Below are positions 26,795 to 47,079 of a stretch of 64,000 bases of DNA, in pieces; position 1 is the stretch's first letter, and the number at the start of each line of letters is the position of its first letter. The position numbers and the translations under genes are program-made. Origin of the DNA: an uncultured Clostridia bacterium (GTDB lineage: Bacteria; Bacillota; Clostridia; Christensenellales; UBA3700); assembly GCA_947175555.1 (NCBI GenBank), contig CAMWNK010000001.1, positions 28,547-92,546 of the forward strand. Reading direction: 5' to 3'. The notes under the pieces are model-generated. The model was not told where the DNA came from, did no database searches, and saw nothing but the letters and a program-made list of their open reading frames with translations.

Positions 26795-27166
26795 ATGGCA
26801 GATATAGCAAAATTGTTAGAGGAAATCAAGGGTATGACCGTGCTCGAGCTTAACGATCTCGTTAAGGCTATCGAGACTGAGTTCGGCGTAAGCGCTGCGG
26901 CTATGGCAGTTGCTGCTCCTGCTGCTGGCGGAGCTGCTGCGGCTGAGGAAGAGAAGACTGAGTTCGACGTTATCCTCAAGGCGTTCGGCGCTAACAAGCT
27001 CGCGGTTATCAAGACCGTTAGAGAGATCACAGGTCTCGGACTTGCCGACGCTAAGGCGTTGGTTGAGAGCGCTCCTAAGGCTATCAAGGAAGGCATCGCT
27101 AAAGATGCTGCCGACGAAATCGCTAAGAAGCTCACCGAGGCAGGCGCAGAAGTCGAAGTTAAGTAA
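26795..27166 (+). CDS. rplL: 50S ribosomal protein L7/L12
   Basis: Ala-rich hinge [26 protein letters not shown], then [24 protein letters not shown]. Confidence 0.97.
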
Positions 27167-27321: not shown

Positions 27322-27576
27322 TTAGTTGCTTTCCTTCTTATGCTTACGCATCATAGCCGTCTCGGGCGCATTAATACGTGCTGCGCTGAACTTGTTGAAT
27401 ATGAGATAGAACAAAGCCCACAGTCCCGCAACGCCTACTATGGCATATATTATTCTCGCGCCTATATACGAAGAGGTGGAGAATATCCAGTTAACTATAT
27501 TGAAGTCGAATATACCGACGGACAACCAGTTAATTGCGCCCACGATTATCAATATCAGAGATATTACGGTAATCAT
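27322..27576 (-). CDS. DUF378-family small membrane protein
   Basis: 84 aa; LILIIVGAINWLSVGIFDFNIVNWIF matches the DUF378 G.NWG.VG.F.F..V pattern as I recall it. Confidence 0.7.
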   Translation of the reverse strand: MITVISLILIIVGAINWLSVGIFDFNIVNWIFSTSSYIGARIIYAIVGVAGLWALFYLIFNKFSAARINAPETAMMRKHKKESN

Positions 27577-27663
27577 ATATTCCTCCTTATAAGGTTTCTT
27601 GAATTATTGTAAGCAAACTGCGCGTTATTATTCTGCGCGCTTTGCTGCTCGAGCGGCAATCGC

Positions 27664-27692
27664 TTGATATATTCTTGCCGATTTTATATAAT
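27664..27692 (+). promoter_or_regulatory. Promoter placed for a leaderless transcript of the 27699 gene
   Basis: TTGATA (27664-27669), 17-nt spacer, TATAAT (27687-27692). ATG 27699 lies 6 nt after the -10, with no Shine-Dalgarno. Confidence 0.45.
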
Positions 27693-27698
27693 AAGCGT

Positions 27699-28499
27699 AT
27701 GGCAAGCAGAGCTAAACGCAAGGGCAAGGATCCCGTCGCTAACAAGAATTATAAAGAGCAGGCAGTCGCTATCGAGAGGGAGCGCGCTATTAAGCGCAAT
27801 CGCAAGCTATACGCAATAGTGTGCGGATTGTTGCTTTTAGCGGTCATCATAGTAATGATGCCGTTCAATACGGCAGGTATTGTCAATATCAGCGTGAGCG
27901 GCAAAATGACGTTTGGCATCAGTGATAGCGTCAATGATTACGATGTGGACGTCAATGTTCCGCTCAATGCCGTAGAGATAATATTCGGTCCTGTTAGGAC
28001 AACTAAGCCGATGCCTTATATAGCGATGAAGATACTCGACTCTATCAACTCCGATTATGATAGAGACGAGGTCAATAACGATCCTACGCTGACGCTTTCA
28101 TCATTGGGCATGGCGCCGACTTATGACGAGATGCTTAACAATGCCGTCGCGCCTATATATGCGCTTAGCTGTATTATTGTACTATCGTTGATTGCCCTTA
28201 TCGTTTTGATTGCCGTCAGTATGAGCGGCAAGTGCGGAATGTTGCCGCCGTTGATTTGCGCGGCGATATACGTCGTGCTTGCAATCGTGCAGCTGGGCGT
28301 GGGCATATATGCCTCTAATATTGCTTTCCCCGCGTCAGACGACTTTACAATCAAGCTCGTAACAGGCGCGCAGACATACGTCAATTTCTTCTTCGGCGGG
28401 GCTATATGCGTCGCTACTACTGTGTTTGGATTAAAGCGCAGATCAATCAACCGCGAGTATGGTATAACTTTGCGCGGAGGTAAGAGCGGTGAAGTGTAA
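27699..28499 (+). CDS. Hypothetical multi-pass membrane protein
   Basis: Basic N-terminus MASRAKRKGK, then at least 4 hydrophobic helices. The track start at 27642 precedes the promoter-like element. No recognisable family. Confidence 0.45.
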   Translation: MASRAKRKGKDPVANKNYKEQAVAIERERAIKRNRKLYAIVCGLLLLAVIIVMMPFNTAGIVNISVSGKMTFGISDSVNDYDVDVNVPLNAVEIIFGPVRTTKPMPYIAMKILDSINSDYDRDEVNNDPTLTLSSLGMAPTYDEMLNNAVAPIYALSCIIVLSLIALIVLIAVSMSGKCGMLPPLICAAIYVVLAIVQLGVGIYASNIAFPASDDFTIKLVTGAQTYVNFFFGGAICVATTVFGLKRRSINREYGITLRGGKSGEV

Positions 28500-29208
28500 G
28501 AATTGCGGAGCCGAGATTGACAAGAAGGCTAAGGTGTGCCCCTCATGCAACGCTAAGGTAGAGAAGGTAGGCTACTTTAACTTTATCAAAAGGCGGGAGC
28601 AGCGTTACGAGGAGACTCAGCAACTGCTTGCAAAGTCTTACGTCAGCGACGAGCAGCTGTCCTCGGCAGAAGTCAAGAGCCACGGCGGGATTAAAGCCGT
28701 ATATGTAGGCGAATGCAAGAAACTTATGCGTATAGCCGCGCTTAAGATAGCATTGTTTGCGTTTATTATGGCAGGCAGTATCGCAGTAATTATAATTAGG
28801 CAGTACACTTCGCTTATGTCGTCCGTATCGGATACGTGGACTACGGTGATTTTATTGATAGCGTTTATAGCTATATTTGGGATGCTCGCTCTTTTATACG
28901 ATACAGCTTATTATCTTGTGCGTTGTATACGTCTCAATAAGCAGGGCGAGGGCGTAGCCAAGATTAACTTCGGCAAGCCTCCCGTTGCTATCAGCGCAGG
29001 CAAGCTGTATAATATCGCATTGGATTTTAATTGTCCTAAGTGCGCTAATCCTACGTCTATGCATATTGAGCAGGTTGACGATATGTTTGTCGCAGTATGC
29101 GACTACGACCGTACCCATATGCTTAAGATAGAGGTGGAGGAAATACTCGAAAATATCCGCCCTACGCAATACTCGTCGGACGAAAATATTGACGGCTCAG
29201 CCGAATAA
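28489..29208 (+). CDS. Zinc-ribbon membrane protein (hypothetical)
   Basis: GTG start 8 nt after GGAGG. N-terminal CxxC-x13-CxxC (KCKNCGAE..CPSCNA), two TM helices, and a second Cys pair (CPKC...C). No recognisable family. Confidence 0.5.
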   Translation: MKCKNCGAEIDKKAKVCPSCNAKVEKVGYFNFIKRREQRYEETQQLLAKSYVSDEQLSSAEVKSHGGIKAVYVGECKKLMRIAALKIALFAFIMAGSIAVIIIRQYTSLMSSVSDTWTTVILLIAFIAIFGMLALLYDTAYYLVRCIRLNKQGEGVAKINFGKPPVAISAGKLYNIALDFNCPKCANPTSMHIEQVDDMFVAVCDYDRTHMLKIEVEEILENIRPTQYSSDENIDGSAE

Positions 29209-29321: not shown

Positions 29322-29360
29322 AAAAAGAATGGAGATTGATTATCAGTCTCCATTCTTTTT
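29322..29360. terminator. Bidirectional rho-independent terminator
   Basis: A5-GAATGGAGA-ttgattatcag-TCTCCATTC-T5. Confidence 0.6.
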
Positions 29361-29391: not shown

Positions 29392-29589
29392 TTACACACA
29401 AGATTGATAAGCATTAAAATAGCGATAAAATGAGGATGTTTTCATTTTGGATAACGATAATGCTTCAGCTAATCCTATTTTGTGTTGCAAGTATTGTTCC
29501 GCGATCTCGGGGAAATTATCCGGACAAGGTAAACATCCTTGGGGATTAAATAAATCGAAAAATTGAATAAAACAGTAATTTCGTAACAA
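29392..29589 (-). pseudogene. Possible remnant of the C-terminal HTH of a small serine recombinase (resolvase/invertase)
   Basis: ..PDNFPEIAEQYLQHKIGLAEALSLSKMKTSSFYRYFNAY resembles resolvase/Hin C-termini (..LP.NF.E....W..G.I....A...L......STFYR; Hin ends ..GVSTLYRYFPA) recalled from memory. I could not find a catalytic N-terminal domain upstream on that strand. Confidence 0.3.
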
Positions 29590-29681
29590 AGGGTAGCGAA
29601 AGACCTCGTTGTCCTTTGATTTTTTACGAACAGTACGCTAATAATAGAATATAGAAAACAGGAAAAGAGAAGTCAGAACTC

Positions 29682-29710
29682 TTGCAATCAAAAAGCTTTT
29701 GTGCTATAAT
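29682..29710 (+). promoter_or_regulatory. Near-consensus promoter heading the island cargo operon
   Basis: TTGCAA (29682-29687), exactly 17-nt spacer, TATAAT (29705-29710); about 250 nt upstream of the 29964 ATG. Confidence 0.6.
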
Positions 29711-29963
29711 TAATTATGTCGAATTATAATCTAATTCGTAGAAATGTGTTATTGTGGGATAACTATGTTATTATTCCGATAGCAAGTTCTTTTGGCGAAA
29801 TCGTTTGAAGTTGTTCGTAGCTTGGGGCTCGGTAAATCGGACGATGGATATAATTTTCTTGGTAGCGTAAATGCACAATTTTGCGTGAAATAGGAATTGA
29901 TATTATTAACCAAAAAATTGGTTGATGTTGCACTTGAAATAGTGTCTAAAGAGAAATTTTTAT

Positions 29964-30779
29964 ATGAAAAACAAAACTAAAAAATCTAAAAAGAGTAGGA
30001 ATAAAAAGAACGGCGCACGGTTGTCTATTTGGGTGTGGGTTTTTATAGCCGTTACGGTATTGGTTTTTTTATATTGCATAGCTAGCAACATAATTAATCA
30101 TTTAGAAGGAGTGTCAAATACCCTTCAAATAGTTTTTGGGTTAAGTGATTTCGCGAATACGGCCATAGGAGCATTGCTGGGTTTCGGGGCTTCACTACTG
30201 TTGGACAAATATTTGATAGCTGTTAACAAGGAAAAGGTTATAGATAATATTGTTGCTGAAATGACGCGTATGTGTCTATATATTTCAGAAATGTTTGACC
30301 CGTATATTAGACTCCAAGATAACAATGGAAATGAGATTATTAAATTTAGTGATACTTTGCAGGGAGCACTTGATAGTTTAACAAATAAGGCTAATAGCGA
30401 TCAATATAAGCCTGAATTTAAAATATTAAAGAATAGGGTAATTAATCATCGTTATAAAATTTTTTTACCAATTTGGGATTCGGTATTGCAAAATGGAGAC
30501 TTGCTAAGGTTTAAAGATAGAGAGTATTTTGAATGTTTGATAAACATATATACTCGGCTTAATAAATTTAGAGCACAAATTGATGCTTTTGATGCCTCCT
30601 TTGAAAATAAGGAGTTGTTTGAATATTTGGTCGAATTATATTCGGATGTTCAAAGTTTATACAAATATATTAAATTACAAAAAGCTCACTTGATTTTTTT
30701 ATGTGGGTATTTGAAAGGAGAGAGGGTAAGTCAATTAAAAACAGATTTCATGTCTCGTTTTGAATTGGATGTCCGTTGA
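29964..30779 (+). CDS. Hypothetical 2-TM membrane protein with helical cytoplasmic domain (partner of the STAND NTPase)
   Basis: Lys-rich N-terminus (MKNKTKKSKKSRNKKNG). TM1 is LSIWVWVFIAVTVLVFLYCIA and TM2 is AIGALLGFGASLLL, followed by about 190 aa rich in predicted helices. No family recognised. The 3' end overlaps or abuts the next gene. Confidence 0.6.
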   Translation: MKNKTKKSKKSRNKKNGARLSIWVWVFIAVTVLVFLYCIASNIINHLEGVSNTLQIVFGLSDFANTAIGALLGFGASLLLDKYLIAVNKEKVIDNIVAEMTRMCLYISEMFDPYIRLQDNNGNEIIKFSDTLQGALDSLTNKANSDQYKPEFKILKNRVINHRYKIFLPIWDSVLQNGDLLRFKDREYFECLINIYTRLNKFRAQIDAFDASFENKELFEYLVELYSDVQSLYKYIKLQKAHLIFLCGYLKGERVSQLKTDFMSRFELDVR

Positions 30780-33700
30780 TTTTATGACACAAAAGCCTCA
30801 AATATATGATAGTAGGATAGTTGATCCTGATCAATACGATGTGGTAGAGCCTACCATGCCATTGTCGTATTGCAAATTTTATTATCAAGTTGATCTTCCC
30901 GATAATTTTTTGAATCATGAATATGTTGATAAAATTATTAGTGATATCAAATTGGGTGTCAACGCAATTGTATTATATGGCATGGGTGGGATTGGAAAGT
31001 CTACTTTATTAAGAAAAGTTATTGATGATTGCGGAGTTTCTAAAATTGCTTATTTTGATCTTAGAAATAAGCGTGATTTTTGTTCTACAGCTCGTGATAT
31101 TTTGCAAGATTTATTTCAATATAGAGTAGAAAATGATAAAAATTTAATGAATGAACTTCTAAGCAAGATCAAAGAGAACAATATTTTAATTATTTTTGAT
31201 AACTTAGAGTCGATAATGGATGAGGGTGGAAACTCTGGTAAAATGTTACCAGATTTTTATGAATATCAACAGCTTGCTGAAGCCGTTATAAATATAACCA
31301 CAAGCTCAACTATAATCTTTTCCGGTAGAGATAAGTTGAAACTAAGTTCCAGATCTGATAAATATAATGAGTATGCTTTAACAGGATTTGATGAGCAAAA
31401 AGCGAAGGCATTTCTTGCTAAGTATAATTTAGCAGGAACTGATAAAGAGTGGGCGCTGTTTGTAGAAATTTATAAAGGCAATCCGCTATCCCTAAAAATT
31501 ATAGCTGAAGAAATTCGATCCAATTATCATTCAAGCCTATTAGAGTTTCTTGCTGATCCTAATATGCCGCGAGAACTTACTGATTTACTTGAAGAACAAT
31601 TTAATAGGTTTAGTCTTATAGAGAAAAATATTCTATTTATATTGGCGGTTGAAAGAGAACCTATTTCGTATAAGAATATCAACGCAATGCTTGTTAAAAT
31701 TAATCGTTTCAATGATGAAACAAGGAATGCAATTGTTAGTATTTCAAATAGATGTTTTATTGAAGGCAGAGGCACAAATTTAGATTATAGTAGATTTTAT
31801 TTGCAACCCGTTATTATGGAGTTCTTAACGCAAAAATTGTTGGGCATTGTTTTCAACGAAATTGTTGAAAACAATCCAGATTTTCTAATGAGAGTTCCTA
31901 TGTTAGATACGGTAGCGAGGGACTATATTGTTAAGACACAAAAAATAGTAATTATAGAACCGTTGTGCAATGCGCTTCTGCAAGAATATGGGCAAAATTC
32001 AAGTGTAAAGATGCTTGCAAATATGAATAGCACTATTCCAACAGATAAAAATTACGCATGTGGAAACATTATAAACATTTTGACTTCTATTTTAGATACG
32101 ATAAGAGATATAGACTTTTCAGATAAATATATTATTAATGCTGATTTTCGTTATAATGATTTTTGCGACTGCAAATTTGTTGGTGCTACATTTTTAAATG
32201 TACTTTTTAGACAAACATTTGGTAATTTAATTGACGTTAAGTACTCGCATGACGATCAGTTATTAATAGGAGGGACAACTGATTATAGTATTAATATATG
32301 GTCAGCAAAAGATTTAAGCCTTCTTCATAGATTGCCGTATCATTCGGATTGGGTTCGTTCGGTAGATACTAATGAAAAATACATTGCTAGCGCAAGCAAC
32401 GATGAAACTCTTTCTATTATAGATTATAAAACATGTCAATTGCTTAATACATTTAGCGTGAGCGGGAGAGTAAGGAAAGTAAGATTTAATCCTTTTGATG
32501 ATAATATTCTTTTTTCATCCGGAGATGATTTAAAAATACATATCTGGGATATCTCTGCTGGTAAAGAGTTAAGAGAGCCATTAATAGGGCACGAAGCGGT
32601 TGTTGGTGATTTCGATGTTATTAAAACTAGGGGTAAAACATGTATTGTAAGCTGTTCTGATGATGGTACATTGCGTTTGTGGAATTTAGATTTAAACACA
32701 AGTGAGATACTTTTAAGGTTGGACACAGAAATTAGAACGGTAGTGTATGATGGATTTGAGAATTTGTATATTGGTTGTTCTAATGGAAACATATGGGCTT
32801 ATTCTTTAATAGACAAAATCATTAAAGGAGAATACAAAGAACATCACGGTACCATATGGGGCTTAGATTACGATGAAAAAAACAATAGATTGGTGTCATG
32901 CTCTGCCGACAAAACTGTAATTGTTTGGGAATGCACGAAAGAATCTATAACTATGTTAAAGGTTTTGAATGCGCATTCTTGTACTGTATGGAGTGCTCAT
33001 TTTAATGGAAACGGGGATTATATAGTTTCTACTGGAGATGATGGAGAAGTAAAAGTTTGGGATACTAAAACCTTTAATCCGATTTATTGCATTAAGGGAT
33101 ATACTAATCTTTTGAGAAATTTAACTATAAATAAAACCAATAACAATGTTTTTGTCTGTGGTGATGATATGCTTATTAGAGAATTCGCTAGCGATAATTT
33201 CCTTTATCGAAAGCGGGTTTATAAGGGGCATATTAATCGAGTTAGACACGTCGATATATCTTCAGATGGCCAATATATGCTTTCATGTGGAGATGATGGT
33301 TGTGTTATATTATGGAACTTATTTACTAAGAAACATATTAAATTCTTTGGTCATAAAGAAAGGGTGTGGACGGTTTGCTTTTTAAATAATAATCAATTTG
33401 CCAGTGCTGGAGAGGAGAATGACATTTATTTGTGGGACAAGTCTTCGCCTGATGCCCCAATTGGATATTTAAAAGGTCATTCAAATTGGATATGGGACAT
33501 ATCGTTTGATGAAACAACTAATAAACTAATAAGTGCTGGAGAAGACGGTACTTGTCGAGTTTGGGATTTAACAACAGGCGCGGTAACGGTTTTAAGCGGT
33601 CATACGAAATGGCTTTTTGCAGCTAATATAAGTCCCAATAAAAGAATGGTGGTTACTGCAAGTGCGGATGGAACAGCAAATGTTTATGATGTATTTACTG

Positions 33701-34086
33701 GAGAAATTTTATATAAGCTAGTTGGACATCGTGAATGGGTATGGAGTGCGATATTTTTGTCTGATACACTTATTGCAACGGGTGGAAAAGAAGGGGCAAT
33801 TAAAATCTGGTGTCTTAATGGGAACAGGCATGCGGAATGTGTGAAGAGCATAGATGCTCATGATTCTTGGGTTGTTTCTCTTGCATACATGCAAAATTCT
33901 TCAGCGTTCTACTCTGCTTCGGCTGATTCAACAGTTAAAGTATGGGATGTGCGATCTTTCAATCAAATTACATGTTTGCATATTGATAAGCCATATGAAA
34001 ATATTGATATTACCGATGCGAAAGGTTTAAATGAAACAGAATTAAGCTCCTTGTTAAGTTTGGGAGCATTAATAAAAAACATATAA
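30760..34086 (+). CDS. STAND-class P-loop NTPase: NB-ARC-like NTPase + pentapeptide repeats + ~14 WD40 repeats
   Basis: Walker A LYGMGGIGKSTLL (nt ~30979), Walker B NILIIFDNLES, and a GxPLxL-like motif YKGNPLSLKIIAE. Pentapeptide periodicity in INADFRYNDFCDCKFVGATFLNVLFRQTF. I count about 14 WD40 units (e.g. GHSNWIWDISFDETTNKLISAGEDGTCRVWD). The start is ambiguous: TTG 30760, ATG 30769 or ATG 30784. Confidence 0.85.
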   Translation: MNWMSVDFMTQKPQIYDSRIVDPDQYDVVEPTMPLSYCKFYYQVDLPDNFLNHEYVDKIISDIKLGVNAIVLYGMGGIGKSTLLRKVIDDCGVSKIAYFDLRNKRDFCSTARDILQDLFQYRVENDKNLMNELLSKIKENNILIIFDNLESIMDEGGNSGKMLPDFYEYQQLAEAVINITTSSTIIFSGRDKLKLSSRSDKYNEYALTGFDEQKAKAFLAKYNLAGTDKEWALFVEIYKGNPLSLKIIAEEIRSNYHSSLLEFLADPNMPRELTDLLEEQFNRFSLIEKNILFILAVEREPISYKNINAMLVKINRFNDETRNAIVSISNRCFIEGRGTNLDYSRFYLQPVIMEFLTQKLLGIVFNEIVENNPDFLMRVPMLDTVARDYIVKTQKIVIIEPLCNALLQEYGQNSSVKMLANMNSTIPTDKNYACGNIINILTSILDTIRDIDFSDKYIINADFRYNDFCDCKFVGATFLNVLFRQTFGNLIDVKYSHDDQLLIGGTTDYSINIWSAKDLSLLHRLPYHSDWVRSVDTNEKYIASASNDETLSIIDYKTCQLLNTFSVSGRVRKVRFNPFDDNILFSSGDDLKIHIWDISAGKELREPLIGHEAVVGDFDVIKTRGKTCIVSCSDDGTLRLWNLDLNTSEILLRLDTEIRTVVYDGFENLYIGCSNGNIWAYSLIDKIIKGEYKEHHGTIWGLDYDEKNNRLVSCSADKTVIVWECTKESITMLKVLNAHSCTVWSAHFNGNGDYIVSTGDDGEVKVWDTKTFNPIYCIKGYTNLLRNLTINKTNNNVFVCGDDMLIREFASDNFLYRKRVYKGHINRVRHVDISSDGQYMLSCGDDGCVILWNLFTKKHIKFFGHKERVWTVCFLNNNQFASAGEENDIYLWDKSSPDAPIGYLKGHSNWIWDISFDETTNKLISAGEDGTCRVWDLTTGAVTVLSGHTKWLFAANISPNKRMVVTASADGTANVYDVFTGEILYKLVGHREWVWSAIFLSDTLIATGGKEGAIKIWCLNGNRHAECVKSIDAHDSWVVSLAYMQNSSAFYSASADSTVKVWDVRSFNQITCLHIDKPYENIDITDAKGLNETELSSLLSLGALIKNI

Positions 34087-34096
34087 GGAGTAAAAC

Positions 34097-35053
34097 ATGA
34101 AAATTTTTGTACTTGGCGGTTCTAATTTTATAGGATGGAGATTGGTTCAATATCTTGGTAATACTGGTAATGAAGTTACGGTTTACAATCGAGGAAATCA
34201 TGAGCGCATTTATCCCAAAAATGTAATACATGTTATAGGGGACAGAACCGACACAGCCAAATTGTTAAAACTTGCTGAAAACAATTATGATGTCGTGTAT
34301 GATATGTGTGCATTTACCGGCGCGCAAATTAAGCCTACAATAGAATGTTTTAAGAATAAAGTTGGTAGGTATGTTTTTATTAGTTCCGCCGCAGCATATC
34401 TAGATAATCAGATTCTTCCGATAAAAGAAGATGCCATGTGTGGAGAACATCCGCAGTGGGGAAAATATGGTAATGGAAAATATGAATGTGAGCTCTTGTT
34501 AAAAGAAGCTTATAATGAATATAATTTCCCGATTACTATTGTCCGCCCTTCATATGTCTACGGAATCGGAAACCCCATCGATAGGGAAACGCTATTATTT
34601 GACCGTATCTCGAAAAGCTTGCCAATATTTATACCTTATAGCGGATACGGCGTTATTCAACTTGGTAATGTTGATGATTTATGCAATGCGTTATATTTGA
34701 TTGCGTGTTCCAATAAAGGGAAAGGCGAATCATATAACATTTCTGGAGAGGAGTACGTAACGCTAAATGGACTTGTTCGCATTATTGAAGATATAGTGGG
34801 TAAAAAGACTAATATTTATCACGTATTACCTGAAAAATATGGTTTTGCGCAACGTGAAATATTCCCTTTTGAAAATAATACATATTTTACGAGTATCCAA
34901 AAGTTCAAAAATGATTTTGACTGGAAACCCACTATAGGTTTATTAGAAGGATTAAAGCAAGCTTATTTGCATTGGTGCAAAGCACCCATAAAAACAAATT
35001 ATACAAACGAAGAAAAATTAGCGCAAATCCTTAAAGGGAATGGAACATTATGA
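34097..35053 (+). CDS. NAD(P)-dependent epimerase/dehydratase (extended SDR)
   Basis: RBS AAGGAG. Rossmann motif MKIFVLGGSNFIGWRL, catalytic YxxxK (YGNGKYECE), 318 aa. Confidence 0.8.
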   Translation: MKIFVLGGSNFIGWRLVQYLGNTGNEVTVYNRGNHERIYPKNVIHVIGDRTDTAKLLKLAENNYDVVYDMCAFTGAQIKPTIECFKNKVGRYVFISSAAAYLDNQILPIKEDAMCGEHPQWGKYGNGKYECELLLKEAYNEYNFPITIVRPSYVYGIGNPIDRETLLFDRISKSLPIFIPYSGYGVIQLGNVDDLCNALYLIACSNKGKGESYNISGEEYVTLNGLVRIIEDIVGKKTNIYHVLPEKYGFAQREIFPFENNTYFTSIQKFKNDFDWKPTIGLLEGLKQAYLHWCKAPIKTNYTNEEKLAQILKGNGTL

Positions 35054-36168
35054 GTTATTCGACAAAATGTATTCAGGAAAAAATACAACTTCTGTGTTAT
35101 GGTTTGAGAACAAATGGGTTAGTAGAACAAATCTATGATATTCAGAATCCATACGATTTAACACGGACGGGAAATGTTGGACTTCAGTTGCTTATTGGAG
35201 ATAATAATCTTGTGGCGAATGTTCCTGTGTTTAATAAATTTACGCAGTTTTCGCCATTTAAATTAGATAATTGTGATGGTTACTTGATGGTTGAAAATGA
35301 AAAATCGGGCGAAAAGTTTCCATTTCAAATTATTCAAACACCTCGATGGTACAAAAATCCAGTTAGAAATGGACATGCTGCGGGTCAATATGTGTTGAGA
35401 GAGGGGACAGGCACATTAATTTGTTCTATAACAGATTCCTGCGGTTATGTTGCGAAAAATATGCAATGTAGATTTTGCGCAATTGGCAAGAATTCCGACA
35501 ACTGGGATGAATCTTACGCTAATCGCAAACAAAATATTTTACAAGCTATTAGATATGCCATAGAAGACGACCAAGAAGTTGAAACGTCCATTAATTTAAC
35601 AGGCGGAAATACTTATGCTGATGATAGAGGTGCGGCAAGATATAACGAATTTATTAGCGAAATTAGAAAGTTTTCCTCCGTACCTATATGTATTGAATTG
35701 TCGCCACCAAAAACAAACGACTCTATTTTAAAGCTTAAATTAGCAGGCGCAAATGCAGTTATGATGAATATCGAAGTTTGGGATGAACAGATTCGAGCGA
35801 TGCTCATGCCGGGTAAATCACAAATTTTGAGAGATAGGTATATTGAGGCATGGAAATATGCAGTCGAAATATTTGGTGTCGGGAACGTAAGTTCCGTATT
35901 GATTATTGGACTAGAAAGCAAAGAATCGGCAAAAAATGCTATTGACGAAATGATAGCATGTGGTGTTATTCCATCAATAATGCCTTTTAGACCAAATGAT
36001 GGTGCAGTCTTAGAAAATTTTCCTATTACTAATCCAGAATTGGTTTTCGAATTAACGGAATATACAGCAAAAAAAATTAGAGATTCAAACATTAACGTTG
36101 TTGCTCTGCCGGGCTGCATTGGGTGTGGCGCATGTGCTACGGAATTAGATTTTCTAAACATAAAGTGA
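35050..36168 (+). CDS. Radical-SAM-like enzyme with atypical cluster motif
   Basis: Cys motif C131-x8-C140-x2-C143 (SCGYVAKNMQCRFCAIG) preceded by C125. GGN/GGE-like INLTGGNTY. C-terminal CIGCGAC (CxxCxxC). About 120-aa N-terminal domain of unknown type. ATGA overlap with the upstream gene. Confidence 0.6.
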   Translation: MSYSTKCIQEKIQLLCYGLRTNGLVEQIYDIQNPYDLTRTGNVGLQLLIGDNNLVANVPVFNKFTQFSPFKLDNCDGYLMVENEKSGEKFPFQIIQTPRWYKNPVRNGHAAGQYVLREGTGTLICSITDSCGYVAKNMQCRFCAIGKNSDNWDESYANRKQNILQAIRYAIEDDQEVETSINLTGGNTYADDRGAARYNEFISEIRKFSSVPICIELSPPKTNDSILKLKLAGANAVMMNIEVWDEQIRAMLMPGKSQILRDRYIEAWKYAVEIFGVGNVSSVLIIGLESKESAKNAIDEMIACGVIPSIMPFRPNDGAVLENFPITNPELVFELTEYTAKKIRDSNINVVALPGCIGCGACATELDFLNIK

Positions 36169-36178
36169 GGTTAATAAT

Positions 36179-37006
36179 ATGAAAAACGAAAATGCAACAT
36201 GGAATAATTTTTTGGCATTGACTTGGGATAAATACTTGCCTCCCATTAGACCATATACGGATGAATGTGAAATTTTCAAAAGCTATGTCCATAATTTTAT
36301 TATAGAGCATAATGCAATTCCTCAAATACTTATTTTGGGCTCAACTCCCGAATTGAGAGATTTGGTTTATGAGTTTGGTATTATTCCTACAGTTGTTGAT
36401 TTTGCAAAAGATAATTATGAAGGTATGAGCTTGCTTTGTAAGAATAAGGGACAGGATAACTTTATTGAAAGCAATTGGTTAGAGTTAGCTCCTAAAAATT
36501 GTGCCAAGAAATTCGATTTCATCTTAAGTGAAGCAGCTTTTAACGTTTTGAGTAGGGATAGCGCAAAACGTCTATATGCAATTTGCAAAGAATTGCTAAA
36601 TGAACATGGAAAAATAATCGCTAAACAGTGGGTTAGACTCTCCAATAAAAGGCCTAGCTTAGAAAATTTATTAGAGGACTATCGAAATAGTAATAGCACT
36701 ATGGGCATGTATTCACATATATGTATTCCGTTGATGCTATGTTTCTACGATTATTCAATCGAGAGAATCACATTAAGAGATTTAGAGAAAAATGTTCGTA
36801 AATTATATGAAACAAAATTAATCACGCAAAATGAATGGGAAACTATTAATTTACACGATTATCAAAATGTAGACTTGGAGTTGTACATCCCTTTATTGCA
36901 GCAGTTTTTATCTGATATGAACGAGTGTTTTAATTTAATAAATTTACATGTGGTAGACAAAGGATTTGCCCAGTTTCATCCTATTTTTGTGTTTGAGAGG
37001 GTGTAG
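36179..37006 (+). CDS. Methyltransferase-fold protein (weak, degenerate SAM motif)
   Basis: ILILGSTPELRDL / VVDFAKDNY / FDFILSEAAFNVL are spaced like class-I methyltransferase motifs I, post-I and II, but the glycine-rich loop is degenerate. Assignment is tentative. Confidence 0.4.
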   Translation: MKNENATWNNFLALTWDKYLPPIRPYTDECEIFKSYVHNFIIEHNAIPQILILGSTPELRDLVYEFGIIPTVVDFAKDNYEGMSLLCKNKGQDNFIESNWLELAPKNCAKKFDFILSEAAFNVLSRDSAKRLYAICKELLNEHGKIIAKQWVRLSNKRPSLENLLEDYRNSNSTMGMYSHICIPLMLCFYDYSIERITLRDLEKNVRKLYETKLITQNEWETINLHDYQNVDLELYIPLLQQFLSDMNECFNLINLHVVDKGFAQFHPIFVFERV

Positions 37007-37009
37007 TAA

Positions 37010-38155
37010 ATGGAACTTGATGTTGTTAATCTAAGACGAGAATTTCATATGATACCTGAAGTTGGGTTCAAAGAATTTCAAACAAGCAAATTGATTTGTT
37101 CAATTTTAACGAACAATAATATTCAATATCAAAGTGGAATAGCAGGTACTGGAGTAATAGTTAAATTTGGCGAAGGTCATCCACATATTGCATTTCGTAC
37201 GGAAATTGATGCACTACCAATTCAAGAATTAAATGAGGTGTCGTATAAATCTAAAATCAATGGTTTTATGCATGCTTGTGGGCATGATTGCCATATAGCC
37301 GCCCTGATTGATACGGTGATAAAAGTAAAGGCACTTTTTGATGAAAAAATTATTAAAAAGGGTGCGGTAAGTTTTATTTTTCAACCGAGTGAAGAGGCTA
37401 AGAATGATTCTGGATTTTCGGGTGGTCAAATTATTTCAGAACTGCCGGCATTACAAGATGTAGATAATTTCTTTGCTGCTCATGTAGAAAGCACATTAGA
37501 CTTTGGAAAAATATTTATTAGAGGTGGGGCTTTAACCGCCGCAATTGATAGGTTTGATATTAGTATTATTGGTAAAGCTGGACACGGTGCTTATCCGCAT
37601 AATGCAGTTGATCCAATTTGGTTATCAAGCAATGTTATGCAAGCCATTAATTCTTTAAAATCAAGAACTGTAAATACGGCAAACCCATCGGTCATTTCTA
37701 TATGTTCAATTAACGGTGGAACCTCATGGAATTCCATTCCAAACGAGGTTGCTTTAACTGGGACTATTAGAACATTTAATCAAAATGATAGGGAAAAAAT
37801 TCACAAGGATATTGGGTCTTGTTTGCAAATAGCTAAGGCTTTAGGCGGGAATTATCAATTGAAGATTTCGCAAGGACATCCAAGTGTAATCAATTCTGAT
37901 GAAGAGTGCGAAGTAGTTCGGTCTGCAGTTAAAAAAGTATTAGGCGACTCAGCAATATCAATAATTGATTTTCAGATGGGTGGCGATGATTTTTCATATT
38001 ATGCAACAAAAAAGCCGTCCTGCTATTTTTATGTTGGGGCGAAAAAAGACCAGATTTCTCGGCAACACCATAGCGGCAATTTCGATATAAACGAGAAGGC
38101 TATTGAGAATATTGTTAATATTTTTATAGAAATTATAAAGGAAAAATTACTGTGA
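37010..38155 (+). CDS. M20D-family amidohydrolase (aminoacylase/hippurate hydrolase-like)
   Basis: RREFHMIPEVGFKEFQTS and GFMHACGHDCHIAAL are hallmark M20D motifs; 381 aa. Confidence 0.8.
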   Translation: MELDVVNLRREFHMIPEVGFKEFQTSKLICSILTNNNIQYQSGIAGTGVIVKFGEGHPHIAFRTEIDALPIQELNEVSYKSKINGFMHACGHDCHIAALIDTVIKVKALFDEKIIKKGAVSFIFQPSEEAKNDSGFSGGQIISELPALQDVDNFFAAHVESTLDFGKIFIRGGALTAAIDRFDISIIGKAGHGAYPHNAVDPIWLSSNVMQAINSLKSRTVNTANPSVISICSINGGTSWNSIPNEVALTGTIRTFNQNDREKIHKDIGSCLQIAKALGGNYQLKISQGHPSVINSDEECEVVRSAVKKVLGDSAISIIDFQMGGDDFSYYATKKPSCYFYVGAKKDQISRQHHSGNFDINEKAIENIVNIFIEIIKEKLL

Positions 38156-39186
38156 AAAAAAATCCTATCATAGATGGGCATATTGATTTAGCGTGGAATT
38201 GGTTGGCTCTAAATAGACTTTTTGAGGATTCTGTCGAATTAAAGGGCACTAAAGATACAGAAGAAATAAAACAATATGAAGGCATAGCTTCAGTTGGATT
38301 TCCAGAAATAAAACAAGGAAATATTCGAATTATTTTTGGAACTATTTGGGTGGAAACAATTAATAGTTTGCACCCCTCATTGGGTCCAAAATACAATACG
38401 GCAGAGGAGTCGATTGCTTTAGCAAAAAAACAATATGATTATTATTTAGATTTATGTAAAAAAAATGAAGATATTTGTTTAATAAAAGATTATCAAACAG
38501 TATCTCGCGTTCTTTTCGGCGATGAATCTCATTTGGGAATAGTTCCAATCATTGAAGGGGCTGATTTTATACATAATTTGAATGATTTGAATTACTGGCT
38601 GGATTTATTAGGAATAAAAATAATTGCCCCAGTATGGCAGAAGAATCAATTTGGTGGCTGTTCTGAATTGGGTGGAGGAATTACTGCCGAAGGAAAAAAA
38701 TTTATAAGCAATTTAACAAAGCTCAATTGTGTAATTGATATTGCTCATATGTCTCAACAAACAGCGGATACTGTTTTAAATGAATCAGACACAGTAATTG
38801 TTAATACGCATACTGCTTGCAAACATTTTGTAAACGATGCGCGATTAATTACCGATAGTCAAATTAGAAAGATAAATGAACACAATGGTGTTATTGGTTT
38901 AATGACTTGGGCTAGTAAATTGTCAAATCGTTCGAGTGTTTCTTTAACTGATTTTATAAAGCAAATTGAACACATAGCCAACATAACGGGCACAATAGAT
39001 AATATTGCAATAGGCAGTAGTATGGATGGTGGATATGGAAGAGACAATCTTCCACATGGCATGGACAATATAGGTTCTTTAAATAAAATTGGAGATACAA
39101 TGTTGTCTTACGGTTTTAAAGATAGCGATATCGAGTCGGTGCTATATAAAAACTGGCAAAGAGTATTGCAATATGCTTATAAATGA
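38152..39186 (+). CDS. M19-family (renal-type) dipeptidase
   Basis: IIDGHIDLAWN (cf. DGHNDLP), DIAHMSQQT, and NTHTACKHFVNDARLITDSQIRKINEHNGVIGL (cf. SHS....c.h.RN..D). 4-nt overlap with the M20D gene. Confidence 0.75.
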   Translation: MKKNPIIDGHIDLAWNWLALNRLFEDSVELKGTKDTEEIKQYEGIASVGFPEIKQGNIRIIFGTIWVETINSLHPSLGPKYNTAEESIALAKKQYDYYLDLCKKNEDICLIKDYQTVSRVLFGDESHLGIVPIIEGADFIHNLNDLNYWLDLLGIKIIAPVWQKNQFGGCSELGGGITAEGKKFISNLTKLNCVIDIAHMSQQTADTVLNESDTVIVNTHTACKHFVNDARLITDSQIRKINEHNGVIGLMTWASKLSNRSSVSLTDFIKQIEHIANITGTIDNIAIGSSMDGGYGRDNLPHGMDNIGSLNKIGDTMLSYGFKDSDIESVLYKNWQRVLQYAYK

Positions 39187-39199
39187 GGTGTTTTGCTCA

Positions 39200-39826
39200 A
39201 TGGAAAGAAAAAAAATAATTAATAGATATAAGCGCGCCGAGGTTTATGATATTTATAATAAGCGTGATTGTCCGTTTTGCTTTATCATGACAAAAATTGA
39301 CATCACCAATATAGTTAAGTATTGCAAAAAACATAAACATTATTATGCAACTATTGCGTGGGCATTAATGATGGCAACAAATGATATGTTCGAGATGCGA
39401 ATCAGATATGAAGATGGCGAATTTTACGAATATGATCTAATGCATCCTGAATTTATGTTGCCTTTTGAAAATGGGATAGCGGGTTGTCTTGGCTGTGAAA
39501 TGAAAAAAAATTATGTAGAATTCATCCAAGAATATGATAAGCAAAAAAGCATATTTGAAAATCTACAAGAGAATATTTATTGTCAAGATAATGGCACAAT
39601 TTGGATAAGCTGTGAACCGTGGATGGAATTGAGTTCTATAATTCCCCCATTTGATAAAAAAATTGATTTTCAACGTTTTATATGGGATAAAATAAAAAAA
39701 GAAAAAGGTCATTATACTGTTAATATACTAATAATGTTTCATCACGGCTACTTAGATGGCCAACATGTGGCACAATTTTTAGACAAGTTTAAGCATTACG
39801 AGGCGGAGTTTAGGAAATATAATTAA
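39200..39826 (+). CDS. CAT-family (chloramphenicol-acetyltransferase-like) acyltransferase
   Basis: ATG 39200 after RBS TGAGGTG; the track start at 39089 lies inside the dipeptidase gene. About 208 aa. Catalytic region IMFHHGYLDGQHVAQFLDKF parallels CAT QVHHAVCDGFHVGRMLNEL. Confidence 0.7.
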   Translation: MERKKIINRYKRAEVYDIYNKRDCPFCFIMTKIDITNIVKYCKKHKHYYATIAWALMMATNDMFEMRIRYEDGEFYEYDLMHPEFMLPFENGIAGCLGCEMKKNYVEFIQEYDKQKSIFENLQENIYCQDNGTIWISCEPWMELSSIIPPFDKKIDFQRFIWDKIKKEKGHYTVNILIMFHHGYLDGQHVAQFLDKFKHYEAEFRKYN

Positions 39827-39971
39827 TGGATAAAATTATAGTCAGAATTCAGTATTAGTTTTTTATCCAGATAAACGAATACGTAATATTAAAAATTGTA
39901 TGGCATCTACCTTACAGAATAACTTTTATTAGGAGACTTATTATAAGATATTTAATTAAATGAGAGAAATA

Positions 39972-39999
39972 AGGAACTTGCAAAATGCAACTTCCTTTT
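39972..39999 (+). terminator. Terminator closing the cargo operon
   Basis: AGGAACTTGCA-aaa-TGCAACTTCCT (one C/C mismatch) followed by TTTT. A second long-loop hairpin, TGGATAAAA...TTTTATCCA, lies just after the CAT stop. Confidence 0.5.
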
Positions 40000-40030
40000 G
40001 TGTGAATGAAATTGCTTGTCTTTGGGAAGA

Positions 40031-40065: not shown

Positions 40066-42624
40066 ATGCACAAAGGGTATCGAATAATTTCCGTTGAGGC
40101 GGCGGATATATATAAACACGAACAAGAATATGGCGTTGCTGTCGGGTATAAGTTGCCCGAAGTAAAGAGCGACGCCTATTTTTGGTTATTCAAAAATAAA
40201 TTGGATTATTCGTTAGATAGCATTGAGCTTGAAAAAGCATACACTCGAATTTGCCGTAAAAAGTTTTCCTTTGTGGACGGACACAATAATAGCTATACTC
40301 TCGCCGTTATCAATGTGAAATTTAATTTTACATATAAGCCCGAGGACGGTAAGCCCTTAAAAGTCAAACGATTGCGAGAATACTTTTATGCCAACGGCTT
40401 TAACGTAAACGGAGTTCACTACGTCAGATACAAGCGTAGTGCCGGAAGTTCGCGCGAAGGTACTTGTTTATTTATAGACGAGCGATTATATAAGTACATG
40501 ACGAAATGGAGTGAGTGCGGATTAAAATCACAATCCGATCTCGCTTCGTGGGAATCGTACAGAGCTTTGTCATTAAGCGGTATAAAAGGCACAATCGAAA
40601 TTCCTTTGGACGGAATATTGTTTGTGCCGGATTGTAAAAGCACGTTTACTGATGAAGTAGTTGCCGTAGAAATGCAAGGCGGTAAGCTGACCGCCCAAAC
40701 AAAGCAAACGCAAATCACAAACGATATTTGGGACGGAGAAAGCCTTTTAGACGAAAGTCTATTTGTGAAGCAATATGCGGATAAACATATGCTACTTCTG
40801 CGTAATAAGTTTTTCAAATCTTGCGGTTTTAAGACAAAACTTCAAAAGTGGATTAAAGATAAAGGCATTACGCTTGATGACTTGAAAGCTCGCGATTTTG
40901 TTACGCTTGCGACGGATATAAGTCAAATCGTAATGGTAACAACGCCCAATAGCTTGAAATATCTGAAATTTGTGGGCGCTCTAAGCGACAAAAATATTCG
41001 CAAATGGACTGAGAATGTAAACAGCACCTTCGGCGTGGTCAAATGGGATAAACGCACAAAGTATTTTGGCGGTAGATTGGTTCAAAGCAGTTATCAATTT
41101 TTGAACACTCTCGGGCTTACCGAGCAAGAGACCGCAGCATTATTACAGCCAAGCTTTGATTATATTTCATACGTTCGCAGAGATATAGACTTTATGCGCT
41201 TTCACTTTGCCGAAGCGTATGCAAAGGAAAGCGACGGCGAAGAAAAGCAAACGCCGGACGGTCTTGCCGAACGCGCCGACGTTATTTTCAAGCTTCTATA
41301 TGACAGTCCGTTTTTCGATCAAACGGCACTATATACGAATTTCAAAAACGATGTTGTAAGTAGTCTGAAAGAACAACTACGGCGCGGGCATATTCTCTTG
41401 AATGGCACTAACACTACGTTGCTCGGTAACGGTACGGAGCTATTAAAATATATTGCCGGTGAAGAAGTAACAAGCGAATTGAAGAACGATCAGATCCGAT
41501 GTGAAAGATTTGAGAACGGCGCGAAGCTGCTTTGCGCTCGCTCACCGCATATAACTATGGGCAATCTCTATCTTGTGGAAAACAATCTCAACGGAGCAAT
41601 ATGGGATTACTTTGATTTGGGCTAGAATATAGTTTGTGTCAACGCTATCAATGAAAATATACAGCAACGCTTGAATGGTTGTGACTACGATTCCGATACA
41701 ATGCTTATTACGGATGACAAGTTATTAGTTGAAGCGGCGGAGAAAAGGGATGATCTTTTCAAAGTTCCCGTTTGCAGTATATTGTCCGGTGGCAATGCAA
41801 ACGATGCTCTTTCGGAACTCGACCACAAGACAAGCGAAAATAAAATCGGTGAAATAGTCAATCTGTCGCAAAAACTTAACAGCCTTATTTGGGACAAGCT
41901 CAATAACGGCGCAAGCACGGCAGATATACTTCCTATTTATGAGGATGTTTGCAAGCTTGCTGTTCTTTCGGGATTGGGAATAGATAAAGCAAAGCGCGCC
42001 TACGATAATGTGAACGTCGGTGCAGAGCTTACGGCTCTACGCAAGAAATATTACGCTCCCGCACCTGTATTCTTTCAAGAGATAGATGAAGCATATAGAA
42101 ACAGAGAGAAGCAATACGCCTTTTATAACACGGCGATGGACTATATTTTTGAGGCAGTAAAGGCGTTTCACTTCCGCAAAGGTAAGGCGAAAGTAAAAGA
42201 CTATGAGCCTATCTCGCGGATATTCGGCAATAGAACGACCTCGGACAATGCAACCGATTACCGTCACCGCGACAAGATTATAGAGATTTGCGACGAGTAT
42301 AAAACGAGACTCGGTAGATTATATATGGCGCTTCGCTCGTCGGACGAAAAAGAACGCGAAGTCATCTACGAAAGAATACAGGACGAAAAAGCCGAAAGAG
42401 ACCGTAAAGTTTCAAGGTGGCTGACGAGCAAAAACGTGATGATCTTTGTGATACGGCATTATGAGAAAAACAGTCCGTCCGATTGGCGCATTTACGCGCC
42501 GCTTATAAATACACCGCTGTTTCAAAAAGAAATGTTTGCTTATCCGATGCCGGAGTTTTTTATTGTAGACGATCCCGACGGACAGTATTGTTTATACGGC
42601 AGAAATTTTACAAAAACAATGTAA
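40066..42624 (+). pseudogene. RdRP-like / double-psi-beta-barrel polymerase homolog interrupted by one in-frame TAG (41623-41625)
   Basis: Track ORFs 40066..41625 and 41671..42624 are in the same frame, and the 45 nt between them are also open. DxDxD motif NGCDYDSDTMLITDD, plus blocks YKRSAGSSREGTCLFI and LLCARSPHITMGNLYLV, resemble the eukaryotic-type RdRP (QDE-1/RDR) family as recalled from memory. Confidence 0.55.
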
Positions 42625-43054
42625 AAAGTGAAAGAGCCTAAAAAGTCAGTAAGTGAAGTGTGTGGCATTATCGAGCCTAATCGGGCATAAACCACTGTTT
42701 TCGACACTATCTTGTGGCAAAAGTCGCATAATGAAACCGCCAACATAAAACCAAGTAATCGGCGTAATAGGACGCGCACGAACAGAGCGCGAATATAGCT
42801 CGACTGTGGACAACGGTCGGGCTTTTATATTGCTTGGACAAAGCATAAACAAATCAATTTTCAAGGAGGAAAAAGCAAACAAAAAACAAGGTGTAGCCGT
42901 TAGCCTTAAAACAATGGCAATAGAAAATTGAATATTAGAAGTGAGGGCTTGGGATGTCGGTAATAGCGAGGAACGTATTTGGCTTGCCAAATACCGCCGA
43001 CAAGTCGGCGTCCTCGTTAGGGAGAGCCCTAAGACCCCAATAAACAGAATGAAC
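42625..43054 (+). other. Non-coding region likely to contain oriT of the element
   Basis: About 430 nt without a credible ORF, directly upstream of mobC and the relaxase gene. Contains inverted repeats (GCCGAC-aa-GTCGGC near 43005; TTAGGG-agag-CCCTAA near 43017-43032). Confidence 0.3.
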
Positions 43055-43068
43055 GAGGAGGAATAATT

Positions 43069-45263: not shown

Positions 45264-47079
<1,816 letters not shown>

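Follow-up and report, generated by a model that had tools for sequence, protein, structure and literature searches.

The window analysed here is a stretch of 64,000 nucleotides of DNA from an uncultured Clostridia bacterium (contig CAMWNK010000001.1). Its source assembly, GCA_947175555.1, is a metagenome-assembled genome (MAG), in which assembly frameshifts are possible. An AT-rich block of the window carries eight intact open reading frames (ORFs) on the same strand, and we consider it highly probable that these eight genes form one functional system and not a chance neighbourhood. They encode an orphan transmembrane (TM) protein, a STAND NTPase and six enzymes, in the following order.

29964-30779, + strand, orphan membrane (TM) protein gene, 271 amino acids (aa)
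30760-34086, + strand, STAND NTPase gene, 1108 aa, start codon TTG at 30760 or ATG at 30784
34097-35053, + strand, short-chain dehydrogenase/reductase (SDR) gene
35050-36168, + strand, radical S-adenosylmethionine (rSAM) enzyme gene
36179-37006, + strand, gene of a protein with a predicted methyltransferase (MTase) fold
37010-38155, + strand, M20D hydrolase gene
38152-39186, + strand, M19 hydrolase gene
39200-39826, + strand, CAT-family acyltransferase gene, 208 aa

An earlier description of this block, made from the DNA letters and referred to below as the original prediction, had given the same eight same-strand ORFs and the same junctions, and our check of the ORFs returned identical coordinates. 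In gene order the junctions are a 20-nt overlap (or a 4-nt gap with the ATG at 30784), then +10, -4, +10, +3, -4 and +13 nt. The GC content is 0.32-0.35 over 29-40 kb, compared with 0.46-0.52 upstream and 0.41-0.50 downstream. Profile and structure searches upheld every family assignment made earlier, i.e. the NB-ARC plus WD40 STAND, the SDR, the radical-SAM-like enzyme, the MTase fold, M20D, M19 and CAT.

The NB-ARC module of the STAND occupies residues 58-253 (30931-31518, + strand) and matches PF00931 with 29.8 bits against a cutoff of 23.5. The match to NACHT (PF05729) is weaker, at 25.9 bits, and lies under its cutoff of 26.7. The Walker A motif, GMGGIGKST, is kept in the orthologs. Walker B reads IIFDNLES, with D-N where D-D/E is usual; the aspartate is kept and the second acidic residue is replaced. 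This D-N is conserved in the orthologs of the window's clade (L003, L007, L025, L026 and the L023 fragment; L numbers denote related loci, described below). Residues ~447-485 (32098-32214, + strand) form a linker of about six F-centred five-residue units, which is conserved in L023. The pentapeptide repeats proposed earlier can thus be read in the sequence, but they have no Pfam match and only a weak PDB match to the pentapeptide protein 6fls (E = 0.19). The WD40 region covers residues ~490-1108 (32227-34083, + strand) and matches WD40 with 1.4e-75 as well as many double-propeller families. As to the ~14 repeats counted previously, eight are individually significant in Pfam, and the length of ~600 aa is compatible with ~14 blades, that is, two propellers. 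Pfam gave no domain match for residues 1-57 and detected no N-terminal effector, helix-turn-helix (HTH) or effector-associated domain (EAD). The nearest relatives of the STAND outside its clade are cyanobacterial NB-ARC proteins with 25-31% identity. A search of a 5.8-billion-protein index with the STAND N-terminus returned cyanobacterial NB-ARCs only and missed the close orthologs (word-index saturation); the orthologs were taken from the loci. Single-sequence PDB searches of the rSAM enzyme, the MTase-like protein and the STAND N-terminus were uninformative.

The membrane protein has a basic N-terminus and a strong TM helix at residues 22-40, as judged by hydropathy and an ortholog alignment. 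A conserved Gly-rich, moderately hydrophobic helix follows (FGLS..AIGALLGFGASLLL, residues ~58-83), and then a conserved C-terminal helical domain (YLPIWxxVLQxGDxLxFKD) that is predicted to be cytoplasmic. Of the two TM helices assigned to this protein in the original prediction, the N-terminal one is strong, but the second is only moderately hydrophobic and rich in glycine. Domain and profile searches found no family match, and only 44 representatives at E <= 1e-3 came out of a full HMMER scan across 1.84 billion representative proteins. The gene lies upstream of the STAND gene in L003, L007, L025, L023 and L026-L035, and its product is a candidate membrane partner or effector of the STAND.

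The rSAM enzyme matches Radical_SAM (PF04055) with 39.7 bits against a cutoff of 29.5 (7e-10), and matches the variant_rSAM model NF045502 nearly end to end (model positions 8-353 of 357) with 172.5 bits against a cutoff of 125. TIGR04043, the model of the MSMEG_0568 family, scored 171.1 bits, under its cutoff of 303.7, and identity to annotated MSMEG_0568 proteins is 27-30%. By these scores the enzyme belongs to a sister group of the MSMEG_0568 (Nit1C) family. The atypical cysteine spacing noted before was confirmed as CX8CX2C (C131, C140, C143), which is invariant in 45 homologs, and a second invariant triad, CX2CX2C (C356, C359, C362), lies near the C-terminus. In the AlphaFold model (pLDDT 92.7) the usual rSAM barrel is accompanied by an additional alpha/beta domain of ~125 aa at the N-terminus. 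Foldseek placed LipA, HydE, RlmN and BioB nearest to this model (E ~1e-7) with no substrate-specific match, and viperin structures rank 37 and below with a TM-score of ~0.44. Profile searches detected a weak relationship to PylB and BioB and no SPASM/twitch or RRE signature. It forms a small family: among 5.8 billion proteins, 64 clusters reach E <= 1e-10. An unannotated 114-kb bacteriophage genome from human faeces also encodes a relative of this rSAM enzyme (MT835476.1:82608-83627; E = 1e-36, 28% identical across 96% of the query). At L010-L012, L015, L016 and L018, which hold the nearest rSAM relatives without a STAND (38-43% identity; mouse-gut Bacilli and others), the rSAM gene adjoins a gene for a classical adh_short/FabG-like SDR in each case, which suggests a conserved rSAM-dehydrogenase pair; in L010-L012 the rSAM and SDR genes are followed by AAA_18-type kinase, CoaE-like and CTP_transf_like genes.

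The MTase gene always stands after the rSAM gene. Its family comprises 52 members, whose longest contigs agree in length, one for one, with those of the rSAM matches, and we take it that the two families lie on the same contigs. The protein has no Pfam match; it has a profile match to 3dtn (1.7e-6) and to phosphoethanolamine N-methyltransferases. The top Foldseek matches of its AlphaFold model (pLDDT 94.6) are MTases and MTase-like folds (E 1e-10 to 1e-8), including the small-molecule MTases 3iv6, 3dtn, CcbJ and PMT. In place of the GxGxG expected at motif I it has LILGSTPELRD, of which LILGSTPE is invariant. Profile search and model comparison therefore bear out the earlier description of a methyltransferase-fold protein, and the fifth protein is best modelled as a divergent class I SAM methyltransferase fold.

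The SDR belongs to the extended NAD-dependent epimerase/dehydratase family (Epimerase, 3.4e-20). Its GGSxFIGW Rossmann motif and its YxxxK catalytic pair are invariant in seven orthologs, and searches of profile and structure databases returned no close characterised relative. The M20D protein has the Peptidase_M20 and M20_dimer domains and is of the aminoacylase type (TIGR01891, 306.8 bits against a cutoff of 153.75). Its metal-ligand motifs MHACGHD, QPxEE and HxEST, together with HHSxNF, are invariant across orthologs, and its nearest structures are YxeP (2e-58), ILL2 (7e-57) and an N-acyl-glutamine aminoacylase. The M19 protein has no signal peptide and matches PF01244 with 171.7 bits against a cutoff of 26 (2.9e-50); eight orthologs all keep the motifs HxD, EGA, two His and GSSxDGG, and the nearest structures are bacterial and renal dipeptidases and GliJ. 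The CAT protein has a Pfam CAT match of 55 bits against a cutoff of 23.5 (1.4e-14) and contains the catalytic HHGYLDG (HHxxxDG). It does not qualify as a type A resistance enzyme, as NF000491 scored 69 bits against a cutoff of 270 and all CatA-like models remained under cutoff. CAT was found in the window and the L003 subtype only, with no match in L007, L023, L024 and L025, and the M20 gene is absent from the P0024 subtype. The peptidases and the acyltransferase, which had been read as prodrug and self-immunity logic, are present in the window, but this argument loses force, since only one subtype has CAT and another lacks M20, so that the pairing of peptidase and acyltransferase does not belong to the core of the system. 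The invariant enzymatic core consists of the SDR, the rSAM enzyme, the MTase and the M19 enzyme.

The block TM-STAND-SDR-rSAM-MTase-(M20)-M19 was found in at least seven independent contexts, in which the identity of the rSAM enzyme to that of the window ranges from 94% to 44%. The contigs examined carry members of the rSAM family spread over its identity range.

L003, rSAM 94%: all eight genes, with a LoaP antiterminator gene upstream and a leucine-rich repeat protein gene downstream
L007, rSAM 60%: TM-STAND-SDR-rSAM-MTase-M20-M19, adjoining two serine recombinase genes
L025, rSAM 58%: the same seven genes as L007, adjoining tubulin-domain genes
P0024 contig, rSAM 50%: the same order without M20, with a 244-aa gene at the TM position (assigned by position only), adjoining an integrase gene
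L023, rSAM 48%: the same seven genes as L007, with the STAND gene split by an IS200-type Y1 transposase gene, and IS66 and IS21 downstream
L024, rSAM 44%: STAND-rSAM-MTase-M20-M19-SDR with no separate TM gene, beside divergent vWA and tubulin genes
L026-L035, the P0095 variant (MTase 58% identical to that of the window): always HTH-TM-STAND-SDR-rSAM-MTase-M20-M19

The index of the sequence collection lists the P0095 variant in 191 blocks, among them mouse-gut metagenomes and MAGs of Lachnospiraceae. We read it as cargo of an integrative and conjugative element (ICE), because it is placed between a type IV secretion system (T4SS) coupling-protein gene on one side and YqaJ, RecD2-like helicase and YodL genes on the other. 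By the flanking genes of these loci, the block is carried on ICE-like or integrative elements in gut Clostridia.

By tblastn, the identities of the L003, L007, L025 and L023 orthologs to the window are 78, 37, 32 and 27% for the TM protein and 89, 46, 43 and 41% for the STAND, while those of the enzymes are ~90% in L003 and then roughly 50-63%. All genes diverge in the same locus order, and the fastest divergence is that of the TM protein and the STAND. At the nucleotide level the window and L003 are homologous over 30051-39840 only, which is the operon itself, and at every locus the GC content of the operon is under that of its flanks. The block thus moves as a unit. The dN/dS values from the comparison of the window with L003 are 0.06-0.21 for all eight genes; codons 601-700 of the STAND show a local rise of omega to 0.32. 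Purifying selection therefore acts on each of the eight genes, a direct confirmation of the earlier proposal that the cargo is under selection. Positive selection on the sensor was considered and rejected, since selection was purifying throughout this comparison (omega <= 0.32 locally) and gave no sign of diversification at this depth.

One of these loci, L024, differs in its sensor. L024:6010-9945 encodes a 1311-aa STAND in which a pair of TM helices at the N-terminus and a TIR domain (TIR_2; score 40.3 bits, cutoff 28) come before the NB-ARC and WD40 regions. In alignments its NB-ARC is 40-44% identical to cyanobacterial NB-ARCs and only ~28% identical to the window clade, and a neighbour-joining tree places it outside this clade. 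The enzyme cassette has thus been combined with two different membrane-associated NB-ARC/WD40 sensors, and the linkage is kept through a permutation of gene order and a swap of the sensor. Passive hitch-hiking is hard to reconcile with a cassette that is joined to two different STAND lineages. Functional coupling is well supported, and hitch-hiking disfavoured, by the recurrence in at least seven contexts together with the rearrangement, the sensor swap and the purifying selection. The STAND had been called effector-less in the original prediction; the window's protein has no fused effector domain, but it is translationally coupled to a membrane protein, and a TIR-fused variant exists elsewhere. 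Because of this coupled orphan membrane protein and the variant STAND with fused TM helices and TIR, the system may have a membrane or TIR effector besides the enzymes.

Several neighbours of the related loci may be described here. The locus L023:5162-9003, in the Clostridia MAG GCA_026000815.1, encodes a 307-aa NB-ARC fragment, an IS200/IS605 Y1 transposase (6174-6593) and a 785-aa WD40 fragment; from its sequence L023 looks like a natural sensor knock-out in which the five enzyme genes are intact. Two independent copies of the block (L024:1-4761 and L025:10199-16396) adjoin genes of large Tubulin_2-domain proteins, and L024 also adjoins a vWA protein gene; these genes are similar to those of the GTPase-centric tubulin/vWA conflict systems that PMC7159879 describes in firmicutes. 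A gene of a 119-123-aa XRE-family HTH protein lies directly upstream of the TM gene in L026-L035 (e.g. L026:3268-3639) and in L007 (4392-4751), and may encode a dedicated repressor. The window has no intact equivalent of this gene; a 65-aa minus-strand ORF lies at 29392-29589. L003:632-1192, directly upstream of the L003 operon, is a LoaP-type antiterminator gene, a NusG paralog (NF033641, 134.4 bits against a cutoff of 125), whereas the window and the other loci have no LoaP gene beside the operon.

The linkage has its limits. Homologs of the rSAM enzyme with <= 43% identity, from mouse-gut Bacilli, Woesearchaeota and Patescibacteria for example, have no STAND, TM protein, M19 or M20 nearby. 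Their genes adjoin a classical adh_short SDR, or a 2-hydroxyacid dehydrogenase and a methyltransferase, or GNAT and ABC exporters. From this we conclude that the ancestral unit was an rSAM enzyme and a dehydrogenase, often with a methyltransferase, making some small molecule, and that the STAND-linked clade is a derived, mobile elaboration to which amide hydrolases were added. The rSAM-profile search of genome and metagenome contigs found only distant relatives without STAND, and that of viral contigs found nothing. A tblastn search against plasmids and phages gave true MSMEG_0568 proteins, one phage rSAM of 28% identity and cyanobacterial NB-ARCs only, with no TM homolog.

The transcription signals of the operon and the flanking features of the window are as follows.

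26132-26255, leader RNA of ribosomal protein L10 (RF00557, 79 bits), lying upstream of rplJ-rplL
26795-27166, rplL, upstream of the AT-rich block
29322-29360 (18-bp stem) and 29587-29618 (13-bp stem and T6), + strand, two strong terminator-like hairpins from the terminator scan and the sequence
29682-29710, + strand, sigma-70-like promoter candidate TTGCAA-17-TATAAT with an extended -10 TG, 10/12 matches
29711-29963, + strand, 5' leader of ~250 nt with no Rfam match and no homology to the leader of the 90%-identical L003 operon
39971-40004 (hairpin 39971-39997), + strand, closing hairpin of 6+5 bp, -10.3 kcal/mol, z = -2.5
40066-41625 and 41671-42624, split gene of no family match (519+317 aa), downstream of the operon
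43373-44110 and 43909-44763, split MobA/VirD2 relaxase gene, downstream of the operon
45425-46195 and 46189-47079, split large serine recombinase gene, split at 46189-46195

The two hairpins upstream would end upstream transcription before the operon promoter and so insulate the operon. The near-consensus promoter proposed earlier is present with its TG extension, but such matches are no commoner in this AT-rich stretch than by chance (63 against 53.7 +/- 6.6 expected from shuffles), and because of this lack of enrichment the promoter at 29682-29710 is only a plausible candidate. A riboswitch or leader RNA in the 250-nt 5' untranslated region was considered and rejected: the Rfam scan of the window gave the L10 leader as its sole match, and the leader is not conserved in L003. 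The hairpin reported after the last gene is real, but the T-run is short (TTTT, with two bases paired in the minimum-energy fold, followed by GTGT) and the terminator scan made no call at 39971-39997, so that it is a weak candidate for an intrinsic terminator.

A decayed mobilisable element (window 40066-47079) lies downstream of the operon; its NikA-like gene was called only in L001/L002. The contrast drawn originally between intact cargo and four lesions in the mobility genes stands for the cargo, whose eight genes are all intact, but three split genes were seen in the element and these are possibly frameshifts of the MAG. On the upstream side, the L10 leader is ordinary and shows that the island follows closely on the conserved secE-nusG-rplKAJL region. 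The stretch from rplL to the island (27322-29208) holds a minus-strand DUF378 membrane protein gene and two ORFs, a multi-TM one of 285 aa and a zinc-ribbon/TM one of 239 aa, both without family assignment; the GC content there is ~0.46, between those of the core genome and the island.

We tentatively propose that the eight genes encode an immune or conflict system with a metabolite arm, a reading to which we give not quite an even chance. It is favoured because of the TIR variant, the fast-evolving sensor and TM protein, the position as cargo of mobile genetic elements, and the tubulin/vWA neighbours like those of PMC7159879. In gut Clostridia the genes would serve conflict or immunity as an NLR-type system, with ICEs and integrative elements as carriers. 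Its WD40 propellers might bind a protein or peptide cue, upon which the STAND would oligomerise in a nucleotide-dependent manner at the membrane and switch the system on. The STAND would be tied to the membrane by the coupled TM protein, as in the window, or by fused TM helices with TIR, as in one relative. The cytoplasmic pathway would comprise the variant rSAM enzyme with its obligate MTase partner, the NAD(P)-dependent SDR and M19, usually with M20D, and with CAT in the window's subtype. These enzymes may make, finish or deprotect a metabolite, and because radical chemistry, redox chemistry and methylation are followed by amide-bond hydrolysis, this metabolite might be amino-acid- or peptide-like and serve as effector or signal. 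In its most specific form the proposal states that the STAND sensor gates the co-encoded rSAM-centred pathway, so that an effector or alarm signal is made or deprotected only when the WD40 domains detect an invader, with the help of the membrane partner, and that the module is interchangeable between STAND lineages including TIR-bearing ones; we regard this full version as unlikely. The intactness of the genes, their family membership, their conserved linkage, the purifying selection and the mobility of the block are shown by the data. The direction of control, from sensor to enzymes or from enzymes to sensor, is inferred, as are the chemistry of the product and the defence role, including the anti-phage role and the sensor-gated making or unmasking of a toxic metabolite in the first option of the original prediction.

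Several points weigh against the immune or conflict reading. A STAND that senses the product or a substrate of the pathway would fit equally well, and the NTPase cycle of the STAND may be atypical because D-N replaces D-D/E in Walker B. The enzymes have no recognisable adaptor domain for recruitment by a STAND oligomer, and the Foldseek results of the rSAM and MTase models point to no substrate. PADLOC on all eight proteins returned only WD40 repeat similarity or marginal scores and no known defence model, and it gave no match for the tubulin/vWA neighbours (eight neighbours of related loci). No phage or viral contig with the block was found in the viral-contig search or in the phage tblastn. 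A bona fide LoaP gene lies directly upstream of the 94%-related L003 operon.

The last point leads to the rival that survives best, an ordinary specialised-metabolite cluster (antimicrobial, signalling or surface-modifying) in which the STAND and the TM protein act as regulator, scaffold, membrane sensor or self-protection and have no anti-phage role or role against mobile elements. LoaP is typical of secondary-metabolite and polysaccharide operons, and its position in L003 fits an ordinary specialised-metabolite operon equally well. All the enzymes are of small-molecule type, the wider rSAM family occurs in small-molecule contexts (SDR; GNAT and ABC exporters; dehydrogenase and methyltransferase), and the defence models of PADLOC did not match. 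However, the STAND lacks a DNA-binding domain and any other known output domain, the conserved block contains no exporter, ligase, nonribosomal peptide synthetase (NRPS) or ATP-grasp, and it is consistently cargo of mobile elements. One variant, moreover, fuses TIR to the sensor, and TIR is typical of immunity and not of cluster regulation. We consider such a cluster somewhat unlikely.

An operon for catabolism, salvage or detoxification of a peptide-like or N-acylated gut compound, with STAND and TM protein as a substrate-sensing switch, would account for the M19 and M20D hydrolases, which are common in catabolism. The nearest relative of the M20D protein is YxeP, and YxeP-type enzymes act in salvage of N-acetyl-amino acids; the related MSMEG_0568 rSAM occurs in the Nit1C cluster, which is linked to cyanide/nitrile assimilation. 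We hold this explanation to be improbable, as the conserved block has no transporter, resides on ICEs with low GC and has a variant with a TIR-fused sensor; in our judgement an rSAM enzyme with a methyltransferase is also unusual for simple catabolism.

It is more improbable still that the enzymes modify a protein or peptide, either by a maturation like that of peptides which are made by the ribosome and modified after translation (RiPPs) or by acting on the TM protein or the STAND. An rSAM enzyme, a methyltransferase and peptidases are a common RiPP toolkit. Defence effectors matured by rSAM enzymes, such as HXS, exist (PMC13128918), and Kaur et al. predict an rSAM enzyme that modifies a peptide effector in vWA-MoxR systems (PMC7159879). 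On the other hand, the eight genes fill 30051-39840 and leave no conserved small ORF; the RiPP reading is unlikely because the homology block has no conserved precursor ORF, and as a main explanation it was rejected for want of spare coding space. The rSAM enzyme has no SPASM/twitch or RRE and its nearest relatives are small-molecule enzymes, the termini of the TM protein are not conserved, and M19 and M20D are of exopeptidase or aminoacylase types.

Finally, that a TM/STAND defence pair and an enzyme cassette travel together as unrelated modules, as the original prediction had allowed and as their common position as AT-rich cargo on a decaying mobile element and the coming and going of the accessory CAT and M20 might suggest, is the most improbable explanation of all, since the co-occurrence test favoured coupling: at least seven contexts, with rSAM identities as low as 44%, retain the linkage and have genes that overlap or nearly abut, the linkage persists with a changed gene order and a non-orthologous STAND, the homology of the window and L003 stops at the operon edges, and neither half was seen alone within the clade at the loci examined.

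Should the reading as an immune or conflict system with a metabolite arm prove correct, its interest lies in the output. In the known STAND/NLR-like systems of bacteria, a protein effector fused to the sensor (a nuclease, protease, TIR or pore, for example) kills the cell or arrests it. No chemical defence (viperins, aminoglycosides) wired to an NLR-type sensor was found in the literature searched. The output of NLR-like immunity would then extend to small-molecule chemistry on demand, and the variant rSAM and methyltransferase pair would point to an undescribed metabolite. The system is compact (7-8 genes, ~10 kb), and natural variants exist with and without M20, with and without CAT, with a TIR-fused sensor and with a sensor disrupted by an insertion sequence. 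Even if the operon is a regulated biosynthetic cluster, it would represent an uncommon mode of bacterial regulation, in which a metabolic pathway has a STAND/WD40 protein as its obligate partner.

The operon may be compared with known systems in several respects. Avs and bNACHT systems share the sensor repeats with a STAND NTPase, the position as cargo of mobile elements and the fast-evolving sensor. In most cases they consist of one protein, to whose N-terminus the effector is fused, and their sensors are mostly TPR-like, whereas here the candidate effectors are separate genes (six enzymes and the TM protein), and PADLOC gave no Avs or NLR match for the STAND. The Apaf-1/NB-ARC-type STANDs (the AP-ATPase clade, cyanobacterial proteins and the "Apaf1-like WD40" sensors of PMC13581612) likewise combine NB-ARC with ~600 aa of WD40 propellers, but the window's protein belongs to a distinct clade in Clostridia MAGs, always accompanied by an enzyme cassette and an orphan TM protein.

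The NTP-dependent multi-gene conflict systems of Kaur, Burroughs, Iyer and Aravind (2020, PMC7159879) resemble the operon in having an NTPase switch with adjacent stand-alone effectors, and one case of a stand-alone rSAM effector is noted in the paper. In contrast to those systems, no EAD or Death-like adaptor was detected here, and the hosts are unicellular gut Clostridia and not multicellular prokaryotes; SDR, variant rSAM, MTase, M19 and M20D are not among the effectors that term searches of the paper brought up. The MSMEG_0568 rSAM of Nit1C shares the variant rSAM architecture, with a nearly full-length NF045502/TIGR04043 match, but the operon has none of the nitrilase, GNAT, AIR-synthase-like protein and flavoprotein partners. 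Prokaryotic viperins (pVips) and the Ophion rSAM system (bioRxiv 10.1101/2025.09.30.679545) have in common with it an rSAM enzyme in a probable conflict context and the concept of a small-molecule antiviral. Unlike them, the operon has no PHP/PRTase or nucleotide kinase and is coupled to a STAND; PADLOC gave no viperin match, and viperin is structurally distant. As in LoaP-controlled Firmicutes operons, there is a LoaP gene upstream in L003, an operon of ~10 kb and a long 5' leader, but the window and the other loci have no adjoining LoaP, and the leaders of the window and L003 are not homologous.

The earlier statement that no described system has a STAND in one operon with such enzymes agrees with our searches of PADLOC and of the literature, which gave no precedent; in the literature searched, including the systematic STAND survey of 2026 (PMC13581612), the conflict-system papers of the Aravind lab and the recent rSAM defence systems Ophion and HXS, a STAND linked to enzymes of this kind is nowhere described. 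The parts of the system are of known kinds, and its architecture is new among multi-gene STAND conflict systems, of which it is possibly the first with a dedicated metabolic arm.

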